From contig CM000434.1 in NCBI GenBank assembly GCA_000165345.1, positions 992,001 to 1,056,000 on the forward strand: DNA of 64,000 nucleotides, written 5' to 3'. The position numbers and the translations under genes are program-made. Below are positions 3,256 to 24,546 of the stretch, one piece after another. Below the pieces are notes generated by a model. The model ran no database searches, was not told where the DNA came from, and saw only the letters and a list, made by a program, of their open reading frames with translations. Every line of letters begins with the position of its first letter. Positions within the stretch are counted from its first letter, which is position 1.

Positions 3256-6099
3256 ATGAGCACTTATAGTGTTTTTGAGCTTGGGAAACTGGATGAGAAG
3301 GATTTTTCTGCAATAGCATGGTTGAATAATGCATTAAGACGAAGAAATGTAACAGAAAATGGACGTCAATTGGAAGAAGAACTTCTTACAATTTCTCAAT
3401 CATGTATGTATACAATTACTGATTATAATGAACAAATTGAAACAAATATGGATGAAATAAATAACTTAATGACTAGTTTTATTTCTAAAAAAGAAGAAAA
3501 TAATAGAATTTGCAAAGAACTTAATTCAAAGATCAGTGAATTTTCTAATTTATTAATTTTAAATGAAGAAAAATACCTTAATAACAATAATATTGAAAAT
3601 ATATTATCTCTTTTTGAAAAGAAAGAAAAGCTTGAAACTGTTTCACAGATTCTAACAAATAACAGCAAATTTGAATTATTATTCAATGAAATTGAAAGTG
3701 TTCTAAATGACAAAGATACATTCTTATTATTAATTAAAGAACAAGGTCAAGATTTTCATGATATTATTAATAAGGTTTACTCTTTGAGACTTCTAGTCAG
3801 CAGTTTGGAATCAATACCAGAATTCTCTGCTAGAATAGAACGTTATAAAAGTCTTGAAAATACTATACTTAATATATTGGATGATTTCTTTCAAAGTAAA
3901 TTTACTAATGAAACTATTGAAGAAAATACTACTAATGAATTAATTCTAGTTTATTTCAAATTTGGTCATGAAACAAGATTATATAAGAAAACTATGAATA
4001 TTATTAATGAACAAATAGAACAGGTTTGGAAACTTTTATGGTCTTTAACTACTTTTGGATCACAAAATAAAGCATCAGAAATCGATCAATTTAAAAAAAT
4101 GGGCAAAAAAACAAATCAAAATGAAAAACATTCTTCTATTATCTTTCTTCCAGCTATTGAAGATTTAGAATCTGCCTATATTACACAAGATATATTCAGA
4201 ATTAGAGAAGATGAAGCTATTTCTAGATTCTTTTCATGGTTTTCTGAACTTATATGTTCAAGAAATCATATTATTGATCCAATATTATCAAGTAATCATA
4301 CTGCTATTACTATTTCAGAAGTTATCCAATCTATTATTCAGAAATTACTTGGAGTTTGTATTCCAGATATAAAAGAATTTATCAATATTGTAGTTAACTC
4401 AATCACAAGCTCTAAATTTATTTTTCCTGAAAATAATTCAGAAAGCTTTGAAATGGATTCAGATTCTATATTTGAAATGAATCATGATACAATATCAACA
4501 ATTGACGTTAAAGAAATTCGAACAATATGTGAAAGAATATGTAAATCAATCATTAATGGATTAGAACTTGTAATTATTCCTGATTTAAATAAACAAGGAA
4601 TATCAAATTTTATATCAAATCATTTGAATCAAGATCATCTTACTCATATTTCTGATATATTATTAATTAAAGGAAATTTTATACAATCACTTTTGCTTTG
4701 TGATATAGCATGGATTTTCCAAAGTATGAAAAACATTTCATCTAACTTAAAAACATTAATTATTAATCAGTCACCTGTTTCAGAGTATTCATCAGAAATT
4801 GAGTCTAAAAGTTCAATTTTAGTTGAAAGAATTGGAGTGTTACTTTCAAATGAAAGATTTGGTGATTATACACAACTTACTTTAATTCCTTTAGAAAATT
4901 ATATCATTTTCTTTATCTCAATTATTGATTACTCACTCAGATTTTTCCTTGAAAATGATTTAATTTACTTATTAAATCCTATTCAAAGTTCAGTTAGAAC
5001 TGAAACATTAAATTTGATTAAAAGTATTGAGAAGAAACAAAAGAATTCAAATCTGTTATTAACATCAGCTAATGTATTGGATAAAGATTTACTTTCATCA
5101 TGTTTTGCTTTTCATTTTTCATTAATGAAAACCAGAAAGATTTTTTATGATTTATTACAGACTTTAATAGTTCGTTGTAAATCAATATATTCTTCTTCAA
5201 CTGAATCAGAATCTCTTTTATCAAAGATATTTCATGATCAAATATGTTTTAATCAATATTCAATATTTCAAAGAATTCAAGAAACTATATCAGAATCTTT
5301 ATCTATTGAAATTCAAGCTATTCTTACTGGTCAAGAATCTTCTTTAAATCAGTCTAATTTTTTTGATAAATTTGGATCACAAATATTAATTTCTCAGATA
5401 CTCTCAGATTCTATTGATATTATTTCCCAATGTTGTTCATATCCAACTTTAGCATTTTTTGAAGGATATAACCGTCTTAATTCTTGGAGTAAAGAAAACA
5501 TTAATATTATTAAAGAAATTCATAATTTAAAAGATTCTAATGCACAATGTTTAGAAGAAGCTATAATATCCATTATCGAGAATTCAAGTATTCAACCATG
5601 TAGTTCTATTGTTTCTATTGGAGAATATTTATTAAATATTGTTGTAACTTTAGAATCTACATGTAATAATAATCCAGAGATGCAAAATCAAATAGAATCT
5701 GAAAATCTCATTCCAGAACTTGTTAAAAAGGTATCATATATTGTTGAAGATACATATAGACGTCAAATATTTGAAATTGAATACTTAAGTAAGCAAGGAT
5801 GCTTACAATTATATGTTGATTCTAAATATATTTTGAATATATTTGAGATACTTTTACTATATCATAAAAATCCTGAATTAGATAATTCTAATACTCAAAA
5901 AAAATTACAATCTGAAGAAATTATTCAAGATCATAAACAAAACAATAATGAGGTACCTGTTGGTAATGAAATTGTGTCTCTTAATAATGCTTTATTTATG
6001 ATCATCTCAAATACAACAATAGAATCTTCATCAAACAACAATCTTTTAGAATGGTATAATTCTTTGAAACAAAAGATAAAAAATACCGTCCAAGAATAA
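3256..6099 (+). CDS. hypothetical protein, 947 aa, Asn/Ile/Ser-rich, no confident domain (N-terminus weakly resembles CATCHR/COG-type tethering subunit N-termini)
   Basis: 2.8-kb uninterrupted ORF in AT-rich DNA. E2F-type palindrome ttttggcgccaaaa 100 bp upstream. Confidence 0.65.
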   Translation: MSTYSVFELGKLDEKDFSAIAWLNNALRRRNVTENGRQLEEELLTISQSCMYTITDYNEQIETNMDEINNLMTSFISKKEENNRICKELNSKISEFSNLLILNEEKYLNNNNIENILSLFEKKEKLETVSQILTNNSKFELLFNEIESVLNDKDTFLLLIKEQGQDFHDIINKVYSLRLLVSSLESIPEFSARIERYKSLENTILNILDDFFQSKFTNETIEENTTNELILVYFKFGHETRLYKKTMNIINEQIEQVWKLLWSLTTFGSQNKASEIDQFKKMGKKTNQNEKHSSIIFLPAIEDLESAYITQDIFRIREDEAISRFFSWFSELICSRNHIIDPILSSNHTAITISEVIQSIIQKLLGVCIPDIKEFINIVVNSITSSKFIFPENNSESFEMDSDSIFEMNHDTISTIDVKEIRTICERICKSIINGLELVIIPDLNKQGISNFISNHLNQDHLTHISDILLIKGNFIQSLLLCDIAWIFQSMKNISSNLKTLIINQSPVSEYSSEIESKSSILVERIGVLLSNERFGDYTQLTLIPLENYIIFFISIIDYSLRFFLENDLIYLLNPIQSSVRTETLNLIKSIEKKQKNSNLLLTSANVLDKDLLSSCFAFHFSLMKTRKIFYDLLQTLIVRCKSIYSSSTESESLLSKIFHDQICFNQYSIFQRIQETISESLSIEIQAILTGQESSLNQSNFFDKFGSQILISQILSDSIDIISQCCSYPTLAFFEGYNRLNSWSKENINIIKEIHNLKDSNAQCLEEAIISIIENSSIQPCSSIVSIGEYLLNIVVTLESTCNNNPEMQNQIESENLIPELVKKVSYIVEDTYRRQIFEIEYLSKQGCLQLYVDSKYILNIFEILLLYHKNPELDNSNTQKKLQSEEIIQDHKQNNNEVPVGNEIVSLNNALFMIISNTTIESSSNNNLLEWYNSLKQKIKNTVQE

Positions 6100-8457: not shown

Positions 8458-9828
8458 ATGAATAAACATAGAAATTTTTTAAGAAAGTTATGTTCTGGCC
8501 CGATATTATTATTAATAATTTTGAGCTTATCCAATAGTACTGAAGTGGATAAAGCTATTAATTTTAAAGAAAACTTACAATCAAAAGAATCAACATTTTC
8601 AACAGGGCTTAGAATACCAAATTATAATAATCATTCTGAAATTTGTAGATTATGTGGTTGTGACTCTACGAAGAATGTAAATGTAGAAGGTTTTAAATCT
8701 TTTACATGTAGTAACTGCAACAAATCCAAAATTCAAGAAGGAGATTGCATTTTGCAAGGAGCAATAAATGATTCAAACAATAACAAAACTGAACTAGTTC
8801 ATGGACTAGAAACTTCAGTTTTTGGAGATTATAGAAGTTTGTTCTTTGGGAAATCTGACTTTTTAACCAGTAGAAGCTATAGAAATAATCTATTGGCTCG
8901 TATTTTTGAACCAGAATTTACATGGGAAAATTTTTCACATGGAAGTATTAAAGATAATTGTAAAATATACAGAGATGAAAATGATGATTTTGAACATTTT
9001 AAGCTTAGTTTTACTTATACACTACATGGCGACCGAAATTGTACACGTCTTTTACTTCATTTTGTGAATAAACACACTGGAAGTACTCTATATAAGAATT
9101 TAAGTCCATTTAAAGAAATAGAAAGTGATTATGATTTAAATTCATTGATGGTTTTTAGGCATGATGATATCAAAGTTAGAGTAGATTCTCTTGAGAAGGT
9201 TAATCTTCACCAAGAATTCAATATCACTTCATACGACTCACCTCCCAAATTCCTATTTAGTTCTGAACAACAAGAATGGGTACCCGTTAGTTTACGGAAT
9301 CAAGAAATTATTGTTAATCCAAAAATTATTCATGAAAGGTTATTAATTATATTTCAGCTCATTAACTCCCAAAGTTCAACTCCAAGCTGCAAAATGGACA
9401 ATGTTAAAGTCGAAGTTGTTGTTCAATGTAAATCTGTAGCTTTCCCGCCAAACCCAAAATACAATAAGGATTTTGTTCAAGATAAACTTAAGAAAATGCA
9501 TTCTAAGTATGATGATAAAATTTTTAAGCTTTTCTTACAAAAATTTGAAGAAAAACTTATGCATGTTCTTGGCTCAATTCCTAATGCTCTACTCACTACA
9601 AATAGTAACAAGTTAATAACGAATACACCCTTGAGCAACTTTTCAATTCCTTGCAAAGAAGCTATTTATCTTGGCGATATTCCAAAGTTAATGACCAAAT
9701 TTAATTATACCTCTAAATTTAATGAACTTGCTAATTCTGGTTCCTATTCTACTTCAACACCAACTTTTGAAGATGTTGACGAAAATAAGCTTTTTAATGA
9801 CATCGAAGCTGCACTTAATACTAACTAA
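8458..9828 (+). CDS. secreted cysteine-rich hypothetical protein with N-terminal signal peptide
   Basis: 456 aa. Hydrophobic N-terminus (ILLLIILSLSNS), multiple Cys clusters (CRLCGCDS…CSNCNKS) and many N-glycosylation sequons. E2F-like sites at 8275-8301 upstream. Confidence 0.6.
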   Translation: MNKHRNFLRKLCSGPILLLIILSLSNSTEVDKAINFKENLQSKESTFSTGLRIPNYNNHSEICRLCGCDSTKNVNVEGFKSFTCSNCNKSKIQEGDCILQGAINDSNNNKTELVHGLETSVFGDYRSLFFGKSDFLTSRSYRNNLLARIFEPEFTWENFSHGSIKDNCKIYRDENDDFEHFKLSFTYTLHGDRNCTRLLLHFVNKHTGSTLYKNLSPFKEIESDYDLNSLMVFRHDDIKVRVDSLEKVNLHQEFNITSYDSPPKFLFSSEQQEWVPVSLRNQEIIVNPKIIHERLLIIFQLINSQSSTPSCKMDNVKVEVVVQCKSVAFPPNPKYNKDFVQDKLKKMHSKYDDKIFKLFLQKFEEKLMHVLGSIPNALLTTNSNKLITNTPLSNFSIPCKEAIYLGDIPKLMTKFNYTSKFNELANSGSYSTSTPTFEDVDENKLFNDIEAALNTN

Positions 9829-9920
9829 TCAAATCTATTCGTCTTAGATTTCTTTTATTATAATTCTAAACAAACAACAAACTAATATTTACATCTTCAA
9901 CTCTACATGCACTATTTAAA

Positions 9921-10115
9921 TTTTCCCGCCTAAAATTGCTCGTATTTTTTAGAAGTTAGAAAAATTAACGCTTTAGTTTAATAATTAGGATCTACCATGT
10001 ATATCAATGAATTTCTTCTCTTCCATTCTGTGAAAACTCTTTTTTCCTCTTCATACGAGAATTGAAGTAATCCTTTGATAATTTATAAGGGAGGGTGAAA
10101 AGTTAGTTTTGGCGG
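9921..10115. promoter_or_regulatory. E2F-like sites ttttcccgcc (9921-9930) and ttttggcgg (10107-10115) upstream of giant ORF
   Basis: GC cores in the spacer 9829-10242. Confidence 0.45.
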
Positions 10116-10242
10116 TTAACATGGCCTAAGACACCCCTCTGGGCCTGTGAGTATAAGAAAGACCAGGAGGCCATTAATAATAAGAAAAGTGTAAAAAAGA
10201 AGATCAGTCCTTTATGGATATTAAGGATTGATAGAGTAGTGC

Positions 10243-13200
10243 TTGATCATCCTAAAGGAGGCTTGCGTTAAAAAAAAGGACCAAATGGTTCGTAATGGTG
10301 ATCAAAGTCTTATAAACATATCATCTACAGACAAGTCTGATAAATGGGACTTGAAGCATAAAAATGAAGAAATTCCAACCAGAAAAGTGGTGGAGGAATC
10401 AAGTCTAGAATACTACGAGAGATCATCGCGCTCGGCCTCGCACTTTGGTAAGGTTTATAATGGACTATATCCAGTAGGTCCAAGATTACCAAGTTTCTCT
10501 TCATCCAATAAAAGAAGTAGGCTACAGAGTACATATAATGAGGATGAGTTCAGTTCCAGTTCAGCAAATAGTTCTGTTATAAATTCCGATGATAAAATGT
10601 ATATTGATTTTCCAATTCGAAATTTCTGGAAGATTGCAAAGACTCCTATAGACATGGAATCTCCCCAAATTGGGTATTGTCGAGGCTTTTATTATAGATT
10701 GTTAGTTCATCCCAGAGGAGGGAGTTGTAATGATTCTGAAAGCAGCTACTTGAGCGTGTTTTTGGAAGCACTTTACCATGAATCATATCCAGACGATTGG
10801 ATTTTTCCAAATGTTCGATTTCAACTTTCAGTTGTAAACTTTTTAGACCCCAAAGCAAATATCACGTCTTGGGCCCATTGGACATTTTCTCATGATGCAA
10901 TGAGTAGAGGATGGCATAAGATGGTTTCACATGTGAGACTCACTAGAGCTGCAGGTTTTGTTGATGACGAAGGAACCGTGTTAATTAGAGGTAGAGCTGA
11001 GCCTCCATTTCCGAGAATTTGGTCAAGATCTCCTAAATGTAGGCCATGGAGTATATGGGGTACCTTACCCTATAGAAATGCATCAGCATTGGCTCAGTAT
11101 AAGCCTTGTATTACCGGAACCCGCCAAGATCAGAACCAAGGCTGTTCTGATAAGCATGTTATTACAACAAATCTTTGTGCTTTTCATGAATTAGCAGAGA
11201 ATTCTAATAGAGGTCTTCTTTCTTGTAGAGCAGAATCACTATCTTCAGAAAGTTGTGGCATTTCTCAACATCAGTTAGAAGGCTCCTTATTAGTAGGGAG
11301 TACTCCTTTGTCAATTATGGATAGACTTTTATGGTCCAGTAGTAATTTGTTTGTTCCAACTTTAAGATCTCAGCTTAATGTGGACTTTGTTCCTGCATTT
11401 GTCCATTTGCTTTACCATATCAAAGAGTTTAGGAGGGCAATTTTCTCTTGGAACCCACGAATCCCTAAGAAATGTTCAACAAATCAAAATCCCAATTCTT
11501 CAGAAAGGTCAAAGAAGCATGATCCCAATCATTCTCCCGCCTCATTTATAGACCCCCAACAGCCACGTACATCCATTATTGAGGCTCTTCAGAAAACCTT
11601 TGCATATATGACTCTCTGGCCAATTGCCTATTCTGTCAAAAGATCTATCCGACATAGCTGGCAAGAAAGAATAGCCACAGATCCTTCTCTTGTGGACGAT
11701 TGGTGTTTCTCTAAATGTTGTAAATGTGGTGGTGAATTTGACTCTTATCCTAACAGTCCTGAAATGACTGACACTTCATCACTCCATACATCAAATAGCA
11801 GAAATGGCCGGCATTGTGCTTCCGATAAAAGTATTCCAACCCAGAGTTCTATTTTCAAAGAAAAGGAATGTCTCAGATGCAAATTACCTCCTGTTCCAGA
11901 TTGTTCTTGGATTATGAAAGCTTTATATATGAACGATTTACAAAGGATTGATGTTGCTGACCCTCTCATGCGCTTCCATTGCTTCATTTTTGGCGCCATT
12001 TATTTGGAGTCTGCACATGCAATTCTCCAGATTGCCGCGCATCACAGAAAGTCAATTCCACAGAATTTCAGGGGTTCAGAAAAGTTTGCCAATTTAGAGT
12101 CATCTGAAGGGAAGGATGAGTTTGAGAGATCCGAATTAACTGATGGTGAGTATAAAGAGTTTAGAGAGTCGGATGAAAGGAGTTTAGGATCACAAAGAAC
12201 TAGAGATCAGGAACAAAGTCGAGGCCAAGGCCGAGGTCAAGGTCAAAGCCAAAACCAAGATCAAGATCAAAACCAGTACTATGATCATGGACAAACACAA
12301 GGACGAGATATGAATATCTCAATCTCTTCTATTTTTGACTTAGAAGAGGATCTGAGAGTCCCAACAGAGTTTGATAATACTTGCAGAGTATTGTTTTCCA
12401 GTGTAGCTGAAGATGGAGGTGATTGCTTCTCTGACTACTCCACGTGCTGCCTTAGAGCTAAGCATATTCATTCAATCCCCAAAGCTATTGAGCATTATGC
12501 TCACAGATTTAAAAGATTCCCTGAAACACTTTTTATTTACTTCACTCCTCCAAAAAATGCCAAGAAGGGAGAGTTGTTTGACGTTCCTTTTAGGCTTGAA
12601 GCATCATTTTTATTGGAGAATTCCAATGTAAATGTAAATACAGGTATCGGAGTGGTTGATCAAGATTTTAAGGGTATAAAATCTGATAATCGTGGACAAA
12701 ACACTAATCAACAAGAGGATATTCAACCTCTTGTCACTGAACAATTCCAAGATGATGAAGTTATTGATGAAAGTACTCCAGACCTGAAAGGTAAAGTTAG
12801 AGGTAATAAAGAAGCAACAGGCTCTGAATCTGGTCAAAATACAACGAGCGTAGTTTTGGACAATAATGATTCTGCATTATGTGTTGAATCCAATGATGAA
12901 TACTCTTTAGAATACGTCTCAGAGGATGGATTTGATGAGAATCAGGACACCTCTATTCAATCTGATAGTCAGGACGATACAACAGGACATAAAAGTGATG
13001 TCAAATCTCCAAATTCTGAGAACTTCTTTGGATCTTCCAGCCAATATATGGAAAAATGGTACTCATTATATGGAGTGATCATTAAAGAAGGAGACGCTTC
13101 TGGAAGTAATTCTACAAGAAGTGTTCATCAACTTCTAATTAGACCTGAAGAAGATGGTCCATGGTTTAGAATTTGTGATGGTTTAGTTGAAAGACTTATA

Positions 13201-16200
13201 CCAAAGATTGAATTCACAGAGTGGAAATGTCATGGTGGATTCTTTTGTGCTGCTGCTGTATATATTGCTGAGGATTACATTGATTCAATTGCTGCAGGAG
13301 ACGTAATGGCTGATTGTGATATAAAGACTATTAACCCAAAGCTATATCAAGAGACTCTAGATCTTCTGGAAGTTTCTGAGGAAGAACTTCAGTATATCCC
13401 ATCTTGGGTATCTACACAAGTTAATACTTATGGTCCAAACAATGTACATTTGGAGATGCCTTCTTCAGAAGTTGATCATCTTGCAATGTGTGTAGATATT
13501 GCAAACGTTACTGTATGTGACTCAACAACATGTGTATTTGGACATCCTCTAATGGATGCTGGTTTATCAATTGATCCTTACTCTTTATGGATGCTTGTTG
13601 ATTATCGTTGGGGTTGGCCTTTAGTAAACAGCTACTTCCAACTCCAAGAACCTTTGGTTCAAGCTTTTTCAGCAGATCCTTCTGTTATACTTTCTGGGAG
13701 GACTATTCTCACTCCTTCAGCTCAAAAGCTACTCAATTCATTATCATTCAAATCTTTACGAGATTCTATACCAAAGTTTTGGAGCTTATTATTCGATATT
13801 ATGTTAGGACCAGATTTGGATTCTAAGGATCTTGATGCAATTCTACAAGTAGTTCCTCATCTTAGATCTCTATCTGCTAATATATTTCTTGAGATCCATA
13901 GGCTTTTGGAAGAATTTGGTATTTCTGAGGAATCTCAAGATCTTTTATTCTCCCAATCTGAGCTATACTCTGCTTTAGAACCTGATGTTAATCATTGTGA
14001 AATTAATAAAGATGATCTTCAAGATCAAGATCAAGATCAACAACATGATAAAGGCTGTCTAAAAGAGTATTTAAAGAATAACATTACAATCGAAGATAAA
14101 CTGGTACCTTATAATAAAGTAAAAATGATTTTATATCCTTCAATTCCTTCTCATCCTCCAAGCTTCCAACTAAATCAAAATGAAATCACTCCATCTTATA
14201 ATATTGCTCTAAACTTCATTAACAGGCTTCACATCCTTCTTTGGCCTCATCTTATACATTTTATCTATGAGCTTCTTCCTGTTGCAATTACTATCAGACT
14301 AAAAAGACTTCTTTTCAAGAGTAGTGACGACCTCTTATTTGATCCCAGACTTACTCCTGAAGATCTTTGTGCTAGATTCTTAACAGAATCCAAGTTTCTA
14401 TTAGAATCTAGCTGTTGTCCACTTAACTTGATTAGATTCTGTGATAACAAACAGCTTTTGAATGCTGCAATAAACCAGGTAGCAGCAGCTTTAGATATAC
14501 ATGGATCATCATATACAGCAGCTTCTTGTTCTTTATCTTGTCCTACTAATAGAATGATTGATAGATTTGCTTCAGAGCTTGGAAGTTCAAACTTTGTAGT
14601 CCCAATATTGGTATATATTACTCAAATATTACTTTCTGGAACATTATATAGAGTATCATCAAAATTACTTCCACCTGAAGCTTTGTATACTTGGCCTACA
14701 AGTTCTTCAAATCAAGAATCTTTGTCTTTAACAGGTATCGGGAATTTAATTAATCATAAAGATTCCACGCCTTCAAAACAGTCAACTGGATCAAAAAAGA
14801 GGAATTCTTCAAATAAGTCTTCTTCTGGTACAGCAAGTTCTAATGGATTAATTGTACCAAATCCACTCTCAGAAGCAATTCAACATCTTCAAGTGAATCA
14901 GGTATCATTCAGTCATATTGATCCTTATGTATTTATTCCTCTTCATACATTCCACGCTGTATCAACTCCTTTATTGGTAAACATCATCTTTGAAAATGAT
15001 CTTATAGGGAGGAAGTCTTTTGCATCTGAGAGTTTTCTATGTGCTTCCAGAGTCCTTCATGTAAATAGACTTGCAACAGTAAGACATTTATACTCAGCAA
15101 TAAGAAAAGTTCTATATCAACAATTTCTAGATACAAAGATTTCTAATAGTTTAGATACTCCAGATGTAACACCATTAGATACTCCTCAATCTAAGAATAA
15201 TAATGAACATAATACAATAGGAGGAAGACAACAATCTTCTGGTCATACTCATACTAATAAGAAGAATACAATATCAAATATTCCGATACCTATAGATTGT
15301 GAAGGTTTTGATTTAAGTTGGATACCAAGTAATCCATTGGATGTTTTCTGTCTTTACTCTTTAAGACCAGATACTGATCCAACAAGAAGAGGAAGACTTA
15401 AATATACTTATATGCAACCAAATGACTTTCTAGAGAATCATTATTATGGACCTCACAAATCTAATTATGTTACGTATTGTGATGTTGCAATTTTAATTTG
15501 TGTACCTCCAGAATTGAAGCTCCAAATACCTCCAGGATCTCAGAATTCGGATCATATAACAAAAAATTCTTCATCCCAAATGAATACAGTATCGGTATCT
15601 GGAGTAGGGGTACCGGGAAAAGCAGCAAGCTTAATGGGGTCAATATCAGCAGGAATTGGAGAATCTGATTCAGATTGTGCATGTTTGTATACTTGTCCAA
15701 GTCATATAGCTCATTCACCAGTATGTCAGAGTTCAAGGATGATAGAAAAGACTGTTCCAAAAATCGTCTCACCTTTATTCAAGGCTAAACTAATAGATCC
15801 TTTATGGTCAAGTACTAAATTCCCAATGAATGATGATTCAGTTGCTCCTCTTTTGATTTTTAAATGGTTTGATCAGACAACTTTGGATATTACACTGTTA
15901 AGTGCATCAATATGTGAAGCAAGAAAGTCTTTAAGAGATTGTATTGTTTCTTGGGTATTCCCTAGAGCAAGAAGAATGGGATTAATGCCTCAAAATTCTT
16001 CTAAAGAGACTCCAAATGCAGATGATTATACAGTTTTAGAGGAATGTCATATTAGAGTATGTCAAAATGTAAGAAGATGGACTTCATCAATAAAGAAAAT
16101 CAATAGAACAACAGGAGATGTATTTATTGTTCAAAAAAGATACAATAATTTGGGATCATCCCAACCTCTGATTTCTGATTGTTCATTTATATCACCCTTT

Positions 16201-19200
16201 ATATCAGCAGCATTATCATCTAATTCATATTCGGGTATTGTAGATGACTTTCCGCCTTCTCTTTCAAGGGATGAGTTATTAGCTATAATTACTAGTATGA
16301 ATACTAAGAAGATTAACCAGCTTGGGATCTTTAATACTCCAATTAAAGGTATATCAGGAAGCAATTCTCCAACAGTATTAGATCTAAAAAAGAATAGTTT
16401 GGATAGAACTTGGCCGATATCTGCATCTCCTATGGGAGGAGATCCTAAATTAACCTTTTCACAATTCTTTGATATTCTTAAGCATGGGGACGATTCTGGG
16501 GACTTTTTAGCATCCCAAATTGAGGATTTGGATATCTATTCATATCAGAATAGTAGTTGTAAGATTTCTATGGAAGATATTTCTTCATTAAAATCCGGTA
16601 CCGATCAAGGAAATTCATTGAATCAGGCAGAAAAAGGTAATCATTCTGTAACTGGAGTTAGTAATGAAACAACTTCAATAGATTTGAAGTCAGTTACAAC
16701 ATTTACTAATACAAATACAGTACAGATTTTAAATGCAAACAACTCTAATCAAAATGATTTATCTGCAATTTCTAGTAACTCTTTAATTGGAGGAACAGGA
16801 GTGGCGGGAACTTCTGGAGGTGGATCTAAGAAGAAGAAAAAAGCTTCCAAGAAGCTTCCTGGAATTCCATCACTACAGAAATCAAGCATTGTGAAGGCTT
16901 TAAATGCTCAGAGAAGACTAGAATCTCAATCTACAAGACTTGTAGATAATGATTCAGCTGATTTATCAGGATTGAGAGGGAGAGATCAAGGTCAAGATCA
17001 TGATCAAGATCTTGATCATGATCGGAGTCAGGGTCAGAATCAGAATCAGGATCAGGGTCAGGGTCAGGGTCAAGCCCAGGATCATGATCAGGATCAGGAT
17101 CAACATAGTAATCAGTATAATGAAGAGGAATCCAAACAGGATAATAAGGGAAATGAAAAACGCAAAGAAGGTCATAAAGAGAAGGATGTTGAAAGAAGTG
17201 ATATTAAAGTAAACAATTTATCTACAGCTTTGAAAAAGGATGCAAACTCTCCTGAATCTATGGATAAAGCTGGCTTGGAGGCTAAGCCTGATTCATCTTC
17301 TCCTTCTTCCTCCTTTTCTTATGGAACTGTATCTCTTAGACCAGAAAAGCTTCAGAAAGTTCCTGATGAACTTTTTGAAATCGCTCTTGAAAGCTTTTCT
17401 GGAGACTCATTCAGTGTCTCCAGCTTAGTTGGCCGTTTATTGGAGCGTGTTATATGCAGATTTTCTGAGATCTCAAATAGAAAAAAGGAAGACTCCTCAT
17501 CTCATATTTCTGAAACCTTTTCTGATTCTAATAATAGATCCGAATTCCTATTATGGATGAATGGATTAAATGATCTCGTATGTAACTTATCTTTGATTGG
17601 AGGTAGCAAAAAGATTGACCAAACTCTTATTCAAAGAGAAATCATACAACTCCTTAGAAGACTTCTCTCAACTGAGACAAGTTCTCAACAACTTTCTAGT
17701 GTTGCATCTGAAAGTCTTTCATCTATAATTAAATATTTAGAGGATGGAAATCTTGAGCCTTGTTTTAAATCAATAATTTACAATATTCCACAAGTTGGAT
17801 CAGGATCAAGATCATTAATATCGGTACCTGGTTTATTAAAAACGATACCCAAATATGGTAATAATTTTAATAAAGAATCATTTAATAATTATTATAATAA
17901 TATGTATAATATTTTAGTACCAGTACAACAAAGATCTGCTATTTTGTTCACAATATTATTAATTAAAAGTTTAACAATACTGTCTCCAAGTTCAATAATA
18001 GAGATGCATCTTGGATTACTTCCTAAGACGGATTATATAAGATCTAATTCATTAATTAAATCAACAGGTTATAAATCAATTAAGTCGTTTGTTTTGTTAG
18101 CATACTTTTTGAATGTTTTTGGAGTTAAAGATGCAATGGATGTTATTATTTCAATACAAGGAGTTAAAGGATTTGAGAATCTATTGATTAGGATGGCATC
18201 CTATACTATAGGCTTGAGACAATATGCAACTAGTAACTTTATTATAGAGAATATTGAAAAGCTTCATGATCATCATCCATCTTTAGATTGGGTATCGTCT
18301 TTAAGAATTACTGATAAGTTAGCAATCAGTGAGGAAGTTCTTAAGAAGACTTTGGAGACTATTTGTGATCATTTTTCTACAAAGAGTAATTCAGCTTTTG
18401 CTCAGAATAAGAAGACTTTGGATTTAATACAAAATGTTGAAGGAATTGTCAGATTCTCAGATATCAATGATTTTGCATATGAACAGGCTCAATTATTAGA
18501 AATGAGAAAAGTTGGAAAAGATTCTCCTCAAATATTAGTTAATAATGATGACTTATGTATAATACTTAAACCTCCTTTCTGGTATTGTCCAATAGAAGGT
18601 ACAGGGATGGATGAGGATGAACAAGATGAGGAGGATAAACAAGATGAACAAGAAGAAAGTGTAGAATATGAAGAAGAATTAGAATACAAAGAAGATGAAA
18701 CTGATGGTGATAAAATAGAAAATCAAAGAAATGATGACAAGAAAAGAAGAAAGGTAAAAAAGAAGCTTGATCATGATAATATCCAAGATGAAAACAATAA
18801 GGATGAGAAAACAGGTATAAGAAAAGATCTTAAGAATAAAGTATCGAGTATTATAATTAAAGAAGAAGATAATGATTCTGAAATTGAAGTTGAAAAAGAT
18901 AATAATAATAGTAATACTGATGAATTTGAGGAGATTCTAAATAGTGGAAGAATGGAAAGTATCTTGAACTTTTTGAAATTAAGATGTAAAGGAATAGGCT
19001 TAGATTTAAGAGGTAACGAGAAAATGATTAAAAGAATTGGATTAAAACTTGGAGTTGAGATTGGAGGTCCAATATTAATTTTAAAGAATGAAGATATGGA
19101 GAAATACTATAATAAGAATGAGATCTTGAATCAAATTCATTGTCAGTATATATTTTTATGCCATGGACAGATTCAGAATTCTTCTGATAGAAATGTCTCT

Positions 19201-21702
19201 TTATCAAATATTGTCTCAAATGCTTCAAATAGAATATTCTCAAAATGTCTTTCATCAGATGGAGGTGATTCTATTGCAAAATATAATGTTTGTGAACATA
19301 TCAAGTTTAAGAATTATAATAAAGGTTCTCCATCCACATTTTCTTTATGTACATGTATTTCAAAACCCGGTAACGTAAATAAGATTAGAGCTTATATGCA
19401 TCAAATTGGTCATACAATTGTTGGTGATTCTAAACATCTTGGTCAGAAACAACTAAGTTTGGATAGAAGATATTTTCCTAATATATTCTTTTATTGTACT
19501 CATTTGGAGATTCCTTTAATGCAAAATAATAATGTTAAAAAAGATGGTGATCATGAAATAGAGGAAAAGCGTGATGGGAATACAATAATATTGGATAGTA
19601 ATGCAATAATAAATAAAGAAAGTATTAAAGTTATGGCTCCAGTTTCAAGAGATATAATGGAACTTCTTGAGAATGATTTTGAAATTACAGAAAAGTTCTC
19701 AGATATGTACTTTTGTCATTTTTATAAGACTAATGTTGAACTTGAAAAGTTGGATAAAGCTGAAAAGACTTCACAAGTTACCCCTTCTGATGCTGATATA
19801 GAAACTAGAGTTGGGGATGATTTAGTAGAGTATAATGAAATTAAGGCTACAAATATGAAATCTGGTAATGTTATTATTAATGATGAAAAAGATAAAAGAA
19901 AATGTTCAGAAAGTACAGAAAATGATAATTTTGAGCCTCTTAGTATATCAAATACTCTGATAGCTTCTCTTCCTGGACTTGGATTTGGACTTACACCATT
20001 TCTTGGTATGCCTAATTCTCAATATGCTGCAAGTGTGAATTGTTCTCAAGATGAGAAATCATTGGAACGTAAACAAAACCAGCGATTATCATTATCTTCT
20101 TCTTCCTCCTCTTCTTCTTCCTCCTCTTCTTCCTCCTCTTCTTCTTCCTCCTCTTCTTCCTCCTCTTCCTCCTCTACTTCTTCTTCAGTTCATACTATGA
20201 TACCGCCAGATTCGGCTAGCTTATCTTCTCCAACTCCGGCATCAACTTTACATGCAAAGACAAATGCTGGAGTATTTACATCATTTGGATTTGGAAGGAA
20301 TTTTCTAACATCTTCTGTTGATAATTCAACAAACTCTGCAAGCATTGGAGGTGGGATTGGAAGAGTTGGAGGAGGAATTGGAAATATTAGAGGTGGAGGT
20401 ATATCATCTACTGGTGGTATGACAGTTAATAATACTGGTTTAAGGCATTTGGTATCTCAACACAACCAATCCGGAGGTGGAAATGGAGATGGAAGTAGTA
20501 TCATTAACAGCAATAGTAACAATAGTGGTAATAACAATAATAGTAGTTCTCTTCCTATAAAGACTCATCCAAGCTTGGTTTCTTGTCTTACAGAATTAAA
20601 CTCAAAATCAGATGGATCTGCACTGGGAATTGGACTAAGTACGAGCAATTTGGTGCCTGGAGGAGGAAATATCTTCCATCAACAAAACTTCATGCAGGGA
20701 ATAATGACAGGAGGAACAGGAGGAATAGGATTGGGAGGTATAGCAGGAAGTTTAGCAGGTGGAGCTGCAGGTGGGGTAACAGGTGGGGTTGCAGGCGGAG
20801 TGGCAGGTGGAGCTGCAGGAGGTTTAACAGGAGGTGGAGTAGCAGGAGTAGGAGTTTCACCATCACCAATTTTCCAACATCACGGGAACAATACAGCTGG
20901 AATTGTAAATAGTGGAAGATATGGAAGCTTAACAATGAACAGTGGTATTAGAATGGATGCAGGCACTGGTACGTTAGGTAATAATGCAGTACAAATGCAT
21001 CATCAACAGCATCAACAACAACAACAAAGTTCAGGGGCAAAACAGGGCTGGAATACTCAAGATCTGCTTCAAAATCCAAGATGGACTTCATCTGAAGTTA
21101 ATAACGATGGTTTTGGAGGTGGAGTCAATAGAATTGTAGGAGGAGGAGGAGGAGTCTCTGAAGAAATGAATGTAAATCAATGGAATAATGGAATTGGCGG
21201 GAATTTCAGAGCTTTAAACTCAAGAGGAATTAATAATTCTGGAGGATTAAACCTGTCAACAGTTAACTTGGTTACAGGAATAGGTATTGGCGGCAACATC
21301 GGTATCAATAGTAATATTGGTATTGGCAGTAATATTGGTAATGGAAATAGTACCACTGGATTAGGAAATATAAATGTAACAGAAGGTACCGGTATAACAA
21401 TTGGATCAGGAGTAACAATGGGACCAGGAGTAACAATAGGACCAGGAGTAACAATAGGACCAGGTTTATGGGGACAACATGCTGCCCAACAGCAACCCTC
21501 AATCATTGTTGATCCTCCGTCTCAGGGGAAACATTCGTCAATGCAACAACAAATTGGAGGAATTCCCAATATTGTCTCAAATCTACATGCCAAAAACATA
21601 CAAGACGGAATTAGTTCCCAAAGATTTGATACTTTTCCTCATGAAAGGGGTGAAACTACTGAGCATTTGGAATCTAGACAAGGAAAGAAATCTCCATTTT
21701 AA
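10243..21702 (+). CDS. giant multidomain protein (3819 aa): MATH domain + degenerate USP-like region + low-complexity tracts + C-terminal RluA-type pseudouridine synthase-like domain
   Basis: Single 11.46-kb ORF. MATH/TRAF-like block (YIDFPIRNFWKI…GFVDDEGTVLIRGRAEP). USP-like Cys-box and His-box analogues with catalytic residues not obviously conserved (…FVHLLYHIKEFRRAIF…; YSLYGVIIKEGDASG…WFRICDGLVERL). RluA motifs ILVNNDDLCIILKPPFWYCPIEG … QYIFLCHG … KIRAYMHQIGHTIVGD … FFYCTHLEIPL. In-frame microsatellites. Alternative start MVRNGD at 10285. Confidence 0.8.
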   Translation: MIILKEACVKKKDQMVRNGDQSLINISSTDKSDKWDLKHKNEEIPTRKVVEESSLEYYERSSRSASHFGKVYNGLYPVGPRLPSFSSSNKRSRLQSTYNEDEFSSSSANSSVINSDDKMYIDFPIRNFWKIAKTPIDMESPQIGYCRGFYYRLLVHPRGGSCNDSESSYLSVFLEALYHESYPDDWIFPNVRFQLSVVNFLDPKANITSWAHWTFSHDAMSRGWHKMVSHVRLTRAAGFVDDEGTVLIRGRAEPPFPRIWSRSPKCRPWSIWGTLPYRNASALAQYKPCITGTRQDQNQGCSDKHVITTNLCAFHELAENSNRGLLSCRAESLSSESCGISQHQLEGSLLVGSTPLSIMDRLLWSSSNLFVPTLRSQLNVDFVPAFVHLLYHIKEFRRAIFSWNPRIPKKCSTNQNPNSSERSKKHDPNHSPASFIDPQQPRTSIIEALQKTFAYMTLWPIAYSVKRSIRHSWQERIATDPSLVDDWCFSKCCKCGGEFDSYPNSPEMTDTSSLHTSNSRNGRHCASDKSIPTQSSIFKEKECLRCKLPPVPDCSWIMKALYMNDLQRIDVADPLMRFHCFIFGAIYLESAHAILQIAAHHRKSIPQNFRGSEKFANLESSEGKDEFERSELTDGEYKEFRESDERSLGSQRTRDQEQSRGQGRGQGQSQNQDQDQNQYYDHGQTQGRDMNISISSIFDLEEDLRVPTEFDNTCRVLFSSVAEDGGDCFSDYSTCCLRAKHIHSIPKAIEHYAHRFKRFPETLFIYFTPPKNAKKGELFDVPFRLEASFLLENSNVNVNTGIGVVDQDFKGIKSDNRGQNTNQQEDIQPLVTEQFQDDEVIDESTPDLKGKVRGNKEATGSESGQNTTSVVLDNNDSALCVESNDEYSLEYVSEDGFDENQDTSIQSDSQDDTTGHKSDVKSPNSENFFGSSSQYMEKWYSLYGVIIKEGDASGSNSTRSVHQLLIRPEEDGPWFRICDGLVERLIPKIEFTEWKCHGGFFCAAAVYIAEDYIDSIAAGDVMADCDIKTINPKLYQETLDLLEVSEEELQYIPSWVSTQVNTYGPNNVHLEMPSSEVDHLAMCVDIANVTVCDSTTCVFGHPLMDAGLSIDPYSLWMLVDYRWGWPLVNSYFQLQEPLVQAFSADPSVILSGRTILTPSAQKLLNSLSFKSLRDSIPKFWSLLFDIMLGPDLDSKDLDAILQVVPHLRSLSANIFLEIHRLLEEFGISEESQDLLFSQSELYSALEPDVNHCEINKDDLQDQDQDQQHDKGCLKEYLKNNITIEDKLVPYNKVKMILYPSIPSHPPSFQLNQNEITPSYNIALNFINRLHILLWPHLIHFIYELLPVAITIRLKRLLFKSSDDLLFDPRLTPEDLCARFLTESKFLLESSCCPLNLIRFCDNKQLLNAAINQVAAALDIHGSSYTAASCSLSCPTNRMIDRFASELGSSNFVVPILVYITQILLSGTLYRVSSKLLPPEALYTWPTSSSNQESLSLTGIGNLINHKDSTPSKQSTGSKKRNSSNKSSSGTASSNGLIVPNPLSEAIQHLQVNQVSFSHIDPYVFIPLHTFHAVSTPLLVNIIFENDLIGRKSFASESFLCASRVLHVNRLATVRHLYSAIRKVLYQQFLDTKISNSLDTPDVTPLDTPQSKNNNEHNTIGGRQQSSGHTHTNKKNTISNIPIPIDCEGFDLSWIPSNPLDVFCLYSLRPDTDPTRRGRLKYTYMQPNDFLENHYYGPHKSNYVTYCDVAILICVPPELKLQIPPGSQNSDHITKNSSSQMNTVSVSGVGVPGKAASLMGSISAGIGESDSDCACLYTCPSHIAHSPVCQSSRMIEKTVPKIVSPLFKAKLIDPLWSSTKFPMNDDSVAPLLIFKWFDQTTLDITLLSASICEARKSLRDCIVSWVFPRARRMGLMPQNSSKETPNADDYTVLEECHIRVCQNVRRWTSSIKKINRTTGDVFIVQKRYNNLGSSQPLISDCSFISPFISAALSSNSYSGIVDDFPPSLSRDELLAIITSMNTKKINQLGIFNTPIKGISGSNSPTVLDLKKNSLDRTWPISASPMGGDPKLTFSQFFDILKHGDDSGDFLASQIEDLDIYSYQNSSCKISMEDISSLKSGTDQGNSLNQAEKGNHSVTGVSNETTSIDLKSVTTFTNTNTVQILNANNSNQNDLSAISSNSLIGGTGVAGTSGGGSKKKKKASKKLPGIPSLQKSSIVKALNAQRRLESQSTRLVDNDSADLSGLRGRDQGQDHDQDLDHDRSQGQNQNQDQGQGQGQAQDHDQDQDQHSNQYNEEESKQDNKGNEKRKEGHKEKDVERSDIKVNNLSTALKKDANSPESMDKAGLEAKPDSSSPSSSFSYGTVSLRPEKLQKVPDELFEIALESFSGDSFSVSSLVGRLLERVICRFSEISNRKKEDSSSHISETFSDSNNRSEFLLWMNGLNDLVCNLSLIGGSKKIDQTLIQREIIQLLRRLLSTETSSQQLSSVASESLSSIIKYLEDGNLEPCFKSIIYNIPQVGSGSRSLISVPGLLKTIPKYGNNFNKESFNNYYNNMYNILVPVQQRSAILFTILLIKSLTILSPSSIIEMHLGLLPKTDYIRSNSLIKSTGYKSIKSFVLLAYFLNVFGVKDAMDVIISIQGVKGFENLLIRMASYTIGLRQYATSNFIIENIEKLHDHHPSLDWVSSLRITDKLAISEEVLKKTLETICDHFSTKSNSAFAQNKKTLDLIQNVEGIVRFSDINDFAYEQAQLLEMRKVGKDSPQILVNNDDLCIILKPPFWYCPIEGTGMDEDEQDEEDKQDEQEESVEYEEELEYKEDETDGDKIENQRNDDKKRRKVKKKLDHDNIQDENNKDEKTGIRKDLKNKVSSIIIKEEDNDSEIEVEKDNNNSNTDEFEEILNSGRMESILNFLKLRCKGIGLDLRGNEKMIKRIGLKLGVEIGGPILILKNEDMEKYYNKNEILNQIHCQYIFLCHGQIQNSSDRNVSLSNIVSNASNRIFSKCLSSDGGDSIAKYNVCEHIKFKNYNKGSPSTFSLCTCISKPGNVNKIRAYMHQIGHTIVGDSKHLGQKQLSLDRRYFPNIFFYCTHLEIPLMQNNNVKKDGDHEIEEKRDGNTIILDSNAIINKESIKVMAPVSRDIMELLENDFEITEKFSDMYFCHFYKTNVELEKLDKAEKTSQVTPSDADIETRVGDDLVEYNEIKATNMKSGNVIINDEKDKRKCSESTENDNFEPLSISNTLIASLPGLGFGLTPFLGMPNSQYAASVNCSQDEKSLERKQNQRLSLSSSSSSSSSSSSSSSSSSSSSSSSSSSTSSSVHTMIPPDSASLSSPTPASTLHAKTNAGVFTSFGFGRNFLTSSVDNSTNSASIGGGIGRVGGGIGNIRGGGISSTGGMTVNNTGLRHLVSQHNQSGGGNGDGSSIINSNSNNSGNNNNSSSLPIKTHPSLVSCLTELNSKSDGSALGIGLSTSNLVPGGGNIFHQQNFMQGIMTGGTGGIGLGGIAGSLAGGAAGGVTGGVAGGVAGGAAGGLTGGGVAGVGVSPSPIFQHHGNNTAGIVNSGRYGSLTMNSGIRMDAGTGTLGNNAVQMHHQQHQQQQQSSGAKQGWNTQDLLQNPRWTSSEVNNDGFGGGVNRIVGGGGGVSEEMNVNQWNNGIGGNFRALNSRGINNSGGLNLSTVNLVTGIGIGGNIGINSNIGIGSNIGNGNSTTGLGNINVTEGTGITIGSGVTMGPGVTIGPGVTIGPGLWGQHAAQQQPSIIVDPPSQGKHSSMQQQIGGIPNIVSNLHAKNIQDGISSQRFDTFPHERGETTEHLESRQGKKSPF
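12210..12275 (+). repeat. in-frame (GGY/CAA/GAT)n-type microsatellite encoding GQGRGQGQSQNQDQDQNQ in giant ORF
   Basis: caaggccgaggtcaaggtcaaagccaaaaccaagatcaagatcaaaaccag. Confidence 0.8.
16981..17105 (+). repeat. second in-frame GAT/CAG/GGT trinucleotide repeat (encodes DQGQDHDQDLDHD…QNQNQDQGQGQGQAQDHDQDQDQ) in giant ORF
   Basis: gatcaaggtcaagatcatgatcaagat…cagggtcagggtcagggtcaa. Confidence 0.8.
20092..20188 (+). repeat. (TCT/TCC)n microsatellite encoding a ~30-residue poly-serine tract in giant ORF
   Basis: tcttcttcttcctcctcttcttcttcctcc… continuous for ~95 nt. Confidence 0.9.
20707..20855 (+). repeat. Gly-rich GGxAGG hexapeptide-type repeat (ggtggggtaacaggtggggttgcaggcggagtggcagg…) in giant ORF
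   Basis: Repeated ggNgSNgcagg units encoding GGVAGGVAGGAAGGLTGGGVAGVG. Confidence 0.75.
21403..21465 (+). repeat. tandem 18-nt repeat (ggaccaggagtaacaata x ~3.5) encoding GPGVTI repeats
   Basis: ggatcaggagtaacaatg ggaccaggagtaacaata ggaccaggagtaacaata ggaccagg. Confidence 0.9.
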
Positions 21703-21850
21703 CAAGACAAAACAAAAAAATGTAACTTATAGCTTTTTCTTTTAAATTAAATATATATTTAAATTTGTCTCCCTTTTCTTTTTCTTTTTCTTCTTCTTCT
21801 TCTTCCTTATTTTTTTGGTCCTTTCAATATTTTGCATCCTCCATTTTTAC

Positions 21851-21884: not shown

Positions 21885-22220
21885 CCGGCATTGGATGCAT
21901 TTATTAGTAGTGGGCGAGGCACTCTAAGAGGTTTTTTTCTTTTTTTTTTTTATTATTTAAATTAAAATTCTAAAGTATTGGTAATAATAATCATAAAAAA
22001 AGTTTATATAATTATAACCACATTGATTAATATTTATTTCTAAATATTAATACTAATATTGTTTTCTATAAAATATCACTTCCTTGAATGTAATATTAAT
22101 ATCCTAATCTTCTTTCCCCTCTATATTAAAAATATTTCGAAAGAAGGGAATGAGGAAAAGTTGTTTAAGACATTAATAACTATTTGGAATAATTGTGTAT
22201 AAATAAGGGGGAAAAAAAGG

Positions 22221-24395: not shown

Positions 24396-24546
24396 ATTTT
24401 AAACTTCTATCTTTTTCTTTAAGTCCAATTATCTCCAAATATTTATAAATCTATTTCTTATTTATTTATTATAGTTATTTAATTATTAAATAGTCCATTT
24501 ATTTATTTGTCCACCTTTTTTTACCTTTATATTTTGTGGCCTCACT

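Follow-up and report, generated by a model that had tools for sequence, protein, structure and literature searches.

The 64,000-nt stretch analyzed here (hereafter, the window; GenBank assembly GCA_000165345.1, contig CM000434.1, positions 992,001–1,056,000, forward strand) lies on chromosome 6 of Cryptosporidium parvum; it is AT-rich, with approximately 24–39% GC, and maps to positions ~989,154–1,053,153 of CP029785.1. Its gene cgd6_4290 (window positions 10285..21702, plus strand) is intronless, encodes a giant MATH-domain protein of 3,805 aa, and carries five repeat tracts, among them a poly-Ser variable-number tandem repeat (VNTR) at 20095..20175 (+), which is our main subject. According to the listing of open reading frames (ORFs) and the translation, the ORF extends over 10243..21702 (+), its first ATG being at 10285; in CP029785.1, the gene called by NCBI has the identical ATG and a product of the same length, 3,805 aa. 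All five tracts share the reading frame of this one ORF; they had been described as in-frame in the initial annotation of the window, made from the sequence alone.

The poly-Ser tract consists of 27 uninterrupted codons, TCT and TCC only, followed by ACT (Thr), TCT, TCT, and TCA. The description in the initial annotation, about 95 nt of a perfect TCT/TCC repeat encoding about 30 Ser, is essentially right; the tract is real, but the range assigned to it, 20092–20188, adds a TTA codon in front and ends in GTT. The run-length encoding of the tract is (TCT)3(TCC)2, (TCT)3(TCC)2, (TCT)2(TCC)2, (TCT)3(TCC)2, (TCT)2(TCC)2, TCT(TCC)2, TCT. Tandem Repeats Finder (TRF) identifies periods 3, 12, 15, and 27 here, with periods 12, 15, and 27 outscoring period 3 and the best score, 143, observed at period 27. 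At the 12.5% Ser content of the protein, ~1.7e-21 Ser runs of at least 27 residues would be expected by chance; across 2,000 residue shuffles, runs of a single residue were at most 7 long, and none of 200 codon shuffles of the gene attained a TRF score of 143.

Comparison with published typing schemes shows that the poly-Ser tract is cgd6_4290_9811, alias MSC6-5, a validated marker routinely used for outbreak typing, present in the window as allele 27; thus, the locus is already known. Four primer sequences, taken from Table 1 of Robinson et al. 2022 (PMC9043402), all have exact matches in the window, on both sides of the tract, with the sequencing pair lying outside the sizing pair. The sizing primers, CATTGGAACGTAAACAAAACCA at 20060–20081 (+) and CTAGCCGAATCTGGCGGTAT, matched as its reverse complement at 20200–20219 (−), delimit the fragment-sizing amplicon of the multilocus VNTR analysis (MLVA), 160 bp in silico (20060..20219, +), whereas the Sanger-confirmation amplicon (19976..20289, +; 314 bp in silico) is delimited by exact matches at 19976–19997 and 20266–20289. 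The Ser run begins at nucleotide 9811 of the coding sequence (CDS), counted from the ATG at 10285, and the same number, 9811, appears in the marker name. Hence the locus, gene, primers, and CDS offset are the same, and 27 is the most recurrent allele in the published profiles consulted; we see no difference between the tract and the marker, and what is added here is the structure of 12- and 15-nt blocks and the whole-block allele steps. The four primer sites in C. hominis carry 0, 1, 0, and 2 mismatches, respectively.

The marker is one of the seven loci of the C. parvum MLVA scheme (Robinson et al. 2022, PMC9043402), where MSC6-5 is attributed to Xiao & Ryan 2008 and the set of VNTR candidates, to Perez-Cordon et al. 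2016; its Hunter–Gaston discriminatory index (HGDI) in the validation panel of that study is 0.32. Among 213 C. parvum samples, it had 6 alleles with 13–31 repeats, typability of 99.5%, and HGDI of 0.547 (PMC10665698). Published C. parvum profiles contain alleles 27, 18, 23, and 36, with 27 and 18 reported most often, and overall the published C. parvum alleles span 13–36 repeats. As 27 and 18 uninterrupted Ser codons observed by us (see below) equal the two most reported alleles, the marker appears to be counted in 3-bp units. MSC6-5 has long been used in multilocus sequence typing (MLST) schemes and is described as differing between IId isolates of C. parvum (PMC7437029, PMC3936226); 53 specimens of C. 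hominis were monomorphic for it (PMC3810731). None of the chromosome 6 MLST loci of the latter study fall between C6-4110 (~957 kb) and C6-5110' (~1,206 kb), the interval that spans the window (~989–1,053 kb). Another marker, MSC6-7, was considered as a possible resident of cgd6_4290 and rejected, since it maps to 12.4–12.9 kb of chromosome 6.

The length of the tract was compared between assemblies of C. parvum (three), C. hominis (three), C. meleagridis (two), and C. tyzzeri (one) by aligning the 3′ 9.5 kb of the gene, with the whole gene included for chipmunk genotype I. C. parvum has 27 uninterrupted Ser codons in the window (and CP029785.1, which is the same) and in BX526834.1, and 18 in GCA_048859185.1; further, there are 13 codons in C. 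tyzzeri, 12 in both C. meleagridis assemblies, nine, with a TCA interruption, in all three C. hominis assemblies, and four in chipmunk genotype I. The difference between 27 and 18 Ser in C. parvum is a single 27-nt deletion, TCTTCTTCCTCCTCTTCTTCTTCCTCC, on a background of two substitutions in 9.5 kb. In the three most distant orthologues of the set (P0003 to P0005), no poly-Ser run was found near the conserved motif GLGFGLTPFLGMPNSQY. The initial annotation had expected the tract to be slippage-prone, length-polymorphic, and usable for typing like gp60, and this is borne out both by the published marker with its 13–31 repeats and by the 27- and 18-codon alleles seen directly. The variation between isolates applies to C. 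parvum, but not to C. hominis, where the length is identical (nine Ser) in three assemblies.

C. parvum contigs from Logan tend to break at this tract. Contigs from DRR729242, DRR729222, and DRR729259 start inside it, at window positions 20140–20145, as do about 20 similar places within the tract, and those covering the upstream side (L017, L018, L020, L022) end in or just before it. Since assemblies break inside the tract, in silico MLVA from short-read assemblies fails at cgd6_4290_9811, and calling of poly-Ser alleles needs long reads or read-level genotyping.

The product of cgd6_4290 has full-length orthologues in other Cryptosporidium, annotated with comparable lengths in at least eight species, e.g., ChUKH1_12010 of C. 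hominis (3,770 aa, 96% aa identity), and partial matches to giant proteins of Toxoplasma, Cystoisospora, and gregarines. The giant apicomplexan orthologues contain MATH, pseudouridine-synthase, or ubiquitin-hydrolase (UCH) Pfam domains. With the complete 3,805-aa sequence as the query, hmmscan against Pfam found no family; when the N-terminal 420 aa (10285–11544) were scanned separately, MATH_2 was identified at aa 110–229 with 39.4 bits against the cut-off of 32, and the segment-wise Pfam scan of the C. parvum protein yielded MATH only, with no pseudouridine-synthase or UCH domain above the threshold. Real domains can thus be missed when very long proteins of low complexity are scanned whole. 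The N-terminus, MVRNGDQSLINISSTDK..., is hydrophilic, with no segment resembling a signal peptide as judged by eye. The protein ends in a low-complexity tail of ~600 aa, rich in Gly, Ser, and Asn (18.5% Gly, 16% Ser), which houses the poly-Ser tract, a Gly-rich repeat, and a GPGVTI repeat, and the sequence 3′ of the repeats is kept between species (e.g., QQQPSIIVDPPSQGKHS in orthologue P0002). Two metagenome scans with the conserved flanks of the poly-Ser tract produced no match.

Four other tracts of the gene, all on the plus strand, were listed in the initial annotation as likely length-polymorphic between isolates. These are an imperfect hexanucleotide repeat GATCAR/GGTCAG at 16981..17105, encoding Asp-Gln, Gly-Gln, and His-Asp dipeptides (TRF periods 6/18/30, score 96); a Gly-rich repeat with 12/24/48-nt periods, built of A/V/T-G-G units, at 20707..20855 (score 120); an 18-nt minisatellite encoding GPGVTI at 21395..21464, given earlier as 21403–21465 (3.9 copies, 94% matches, score 119); and a weak degenerate 6/18-nt repeat (QG/QS/QN/QD) at 12210..12275 (scores 31–48). 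The scores of the former three were each reached in 0 out of 200 codon shuffles, while 31 out of 200 yielded, at some place in the gene, the score of 48 seen at 12210–12275, which is not significant. Variation within species was assessed in six C. parvum, three C. hominis, and two C. meleagridis assemblies, a sample in which rare alleles could be missed; length differences are given in nucleotides relative to the window.

The expectation of polymorphism between isolates holds for 16981–17105, in three species, while 20707–20855, 21403–21465, and 12210–12275 differ, in this sample, between species only. At 16981–17105, the differences are 0 and +6 in C. parvum, +12 and +36 in C. hominis, −60 and −54 in C. 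meleagridis, and −72 in both C. tyzzeri and chipmunk genotype I. The C. parvum alleles are (GGTCAG)3 and (GGTCAG)4, the +6 allele being present in GCA_048859185.1 and at least four Logan contigs (DRR7292xx runs); the two C. meleagridis assemblies, 6 nt apart, also differ as (GGTCAG)3 and (GGTCAG)4. C. hominis GCA_045269125.1 is 24 nt longer in (GATCAG)n than UKH1 and SRR29134127, and due to these extra 24 nt its orthologue has 3,778 aa, compared with 3,770 aa; poly-Ser in this assembly stays at nine codons.

The Gly-rich repeat at 20707–20855 differs by +15 in C. tyzzeri, −99 in C. meleagridis, −60 in chipmunk genotype I, and net 0 in C. hominis (−12, +12), with no length change among the six C. 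parvum assemblies. The 18-nt minisatellite at 21403–21465, identical in the six C. parvum assemblies, is shorter in other species by −18 to −54, that is, by one unit in C. hominis and C. tyzzeri, two in C. meleagridis, and three in chipmunk genotype I. The repeat at 12210–12275 differs by +6 in C. hominis and −12 in C. tyzzeri, and no indel was found in the C. parvum loci covering it (L017–L022). In the literature, we found no typing scheme with 16981–17105, 20707–20855, or 21403–21465. Five more in-frame repeats with between-species indels were observed at 14019–14040, 18613–18657, 20997–21027, 21138–21154, and 21301–21340, that is, (TCAAGA)n, an acidic 9/27-nt repeat, CAA/CAT poly-Gln/His, (AGG)n poly-Gly, and 18-nt GI(N/G)SNI, respectively; none varied among three C. 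parvum assemblies.

Built on the observed marker identity, reading frame, allele differences, and block-sized deletion, our explanation of the locus is that cgd6_4290 carries a cluster of in-frame micro- and minisatellites in its low-complexity parts, with poly-Ser being the known marker that changes block-wise, is constrained by the reading frame, and evolves neutrally; taken as a whole, this is very probably correct. Rather than a homogeneous (TCT)n, the poly-Ser tract is a higher-order array of 12-nt (TCT)2(TCC)2 and 15-nt (TCT)3(TCC)2 blocks with the combined period of 27 nt. Misalignment would then occur in register with the internal blocks, and because of that alleles would step by four, five, or nine codons rather than by one, the locus likely acting as a 12/15-nt minisatellite for which 3 nt is just the counting unit. 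The documented alleles 13, 18, 23, 27, 31, and 36 are separated by steps of 5, 5, 4, 4, and 5 codons, and the observed C. parvum deletion is one 27-nt (4+5 codon) unit. Replication slippage or unequal exchange in the obligatory sexual cycle, we infer, may be the source of the length changes. Long pure tracts (18–36 codons in C. parvum) are likely unstable, whereas short interrupted ones (nine codons with TCA in C. hominis) are likely stable.

Only in-frame changes would survive, as the conserved C-terminal end must be translated: frameshifts appear to be selected against, given the interspecific conservation of what follows the repeats. All 17 indels in the gene between C. parvum and C. hominis are multiples of three, as is every indel in the other species comparisons, and the tandem arrays, which cover 7.9% of the gene, contain 11 of these 17 (binomial P = 6e-9). 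Most likely, the repeats encode a dispensable disordered linker and are neither functional nor antigenic; the presence of only four Ser in chipmunk genotype I and the lack of a run near GLGFGLTPFLGMPNSQY in P0003 to P0005 support dispensability.

Several points weigh against this explanation. Slippage and unequal meiotic crossover are seen through their products only; the pattern of 4/5/9-codon steps rests on six allele values from the texts of papers, and the sixth allele of the 13–31 series (PMC10665698), being outside the documented values, could break it. Neutrality of the tract is deduced from its absence in other species, and the within-species sample is small, comprising three full C. 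parvum assemblies and short-read contigs that break at the tract.

An alternative is diversifying or antigenic selection on the repeats, as in gp60 poly-Ser, with functional rather than neutral length variation. Indeed, poly-Ser is encoded here as it is in gp60, its length differs between all species examined, the older MLST literature calls MSC6-5 a “hypothetical trans-membrane protein,” and the gene evolves fairly fast, with 96% aa versus 97.7% nt identity to C. hominis. However, the host is a 3,805-aa MATH-domain protein whose orthologues carry pseudouridine-synthase or ubiquitin-hydrolase domains, an intracellular make-up, and its N-terminus, hydrophilic by eye, is unlike a signal peptide; the tract is monomorphic in C. 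hominis, and copy number changes in block-sized steps almost without accompanying substitutions. We consider such selection very unlikely.

Still less likely is that the length differences result from assembly artefacts at a low-complexity tract, although the breaks of C. parvum Logan contigs at 20140 and 20145 demonstrate that the region is hard to assemble. Separate chromosome 6 records, BX526834.1 and CP029785.1, share an identical 27-codon tract, and the assembly sizes, 27 and 18, are the alleles most reported by PCR sizing with Sanger confirmation; since separate assemblies agree both with each other and with PCR-based alleles, this explanation can be rejected for the main alleles and is largely refuted. 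Similarly, the +6 allele at 16981–17105 recurs in one NCBI assembly and at least four Logan contigs. Finally, the tracts could be non-coding, with the long ORF being fortuitous or containing introns; in favor of this, the ORFs were called mechanically with the bacterial code, and the whole-protein Pfam scan was empty. But an 11.4-kb stop-free frame in DNA with ~30% GC cannot be due to chance, orthologues of similar length exist in at least eight Cryptosporidium species, indels in all species are multiples of three, the sequence 3′ of the repeats is conserved (QQQPSIIVDPPSQGKHS in P0002), and the N-terminus contains the MATH domain, making this the least plausible of the alternatives, with hardly any probability left to it.

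A close known analogue of the tract is gp60 (cgd6_1080), also a coding TCN poly-Ser repeat on the same chromosome, length-polymorphic, used for subtyping, and with alleles named by the repeat count. The gp60 repeat is composed of TCA, TCG, and TCT codons and belongs to a surface glycoprotein that is secreted, O-glycosylated, and subject to immune selection; its flanking sequences are highly diverse and define subtype families. In contrast, the cgd6_4290 tract is formed by TCT and TCC codons, resides in an intracellular-looking giant MATH-domain host, and has nearly invariant flanks; judging by the N-terminus (by eye), the MATH domain, and the domains of the orthologues, the cgd6_4290 product does not share the context of a secreted or surface glycoprotein of the gp60 type. 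The discrimination is below that of gp60, with HGDI of 0.32–0.55 for cgd6_4290_9811 (PMC9043402, PMC10665698) versus 0.74 for gp60 in the panel of PMC9043402. Other MLVA loci, such as MSF (cgd5_10_310), cgd4_2350_796, and MM19 (cgd8_4840_6355), are likewise in-frame minisatellites that lie in C. parvum genes and are typed by sizing of fragments. The 12/15-nt step of poly-Ser resembles the unit lengths of MSF (12 bp) and cgd4_2350_796 (15 bp) (PMC10665698), although, unlike these two, the poly-Ser locus is apparently counted in 3-bp units.

As for the genomic setting, the window and CP029785.1 have the same sequence wherever they were compared, over 22,175 nt (window positions 12221–34395) and over 8458–19828. 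BX526834.1 differs from the window over 12221–34395 by one coding single-nucleotide polymorphism and three single-base intergenic indels, and a further substitution is found at 8817, inside an upstream gene encoding 456 aa. In the intergenic region 3′ of the giant gene, the window and CP029785.1 are one base short at 21941 and at ~22206–22220, so that the length is 518 nt in the window versus 520 nt in five other C. parvum assemblies, which have both bases; at these homopolymer-rich sites, the missing bases are probably assembly errors rather than alleles. The intergenic (TTC)n at 21774–21814 and the AT-rich repeat at 24440–24507 were checked for variation within C. parvum, and none was found. 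The orthologue of the downstream neighbor in C. meleagridis carries the tag cmbei_6004300. Upstream, a COG7-like gene (window ~3256–6099) has 886 aa in BX526834.1 versus 947 aa in CP029785.1 and other assemblies, which appears to reflect a differing annotated start codon.

The sequence-only reading has picked a locus already used by the UK and France reference laboratories for C. parvum outbreak typing, so its value is mainly confirmatory, and the understanding of Cryptosporidium biology is unchanged. The additions made here, namely, the block-wise structure of alleles, the variability of 16981–17105 in three species, and the breaks of short-read contigs at poly-Ser, are modest. Tentatively, and with somewhat more doubt than confidence, we propose that 16981–17105 is a within-species VNTR unused in typing and, separately, that poly-Ser alleles may change only in 12-, 15-, or 27-nt blocks. 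Mutation by blocks of four, five, or nine codons would aid interpretation of fragment-sizing bins; if changes are indeed restricted to blocks, allele bins could be restricted as well, with intermediate peaks treated as stutter. As the established marker does not vary in C. hominis, 16981–17105 could add informativeness, and, if the proposal is true, it would provide one amplicon informative in the three main human-infecting species.

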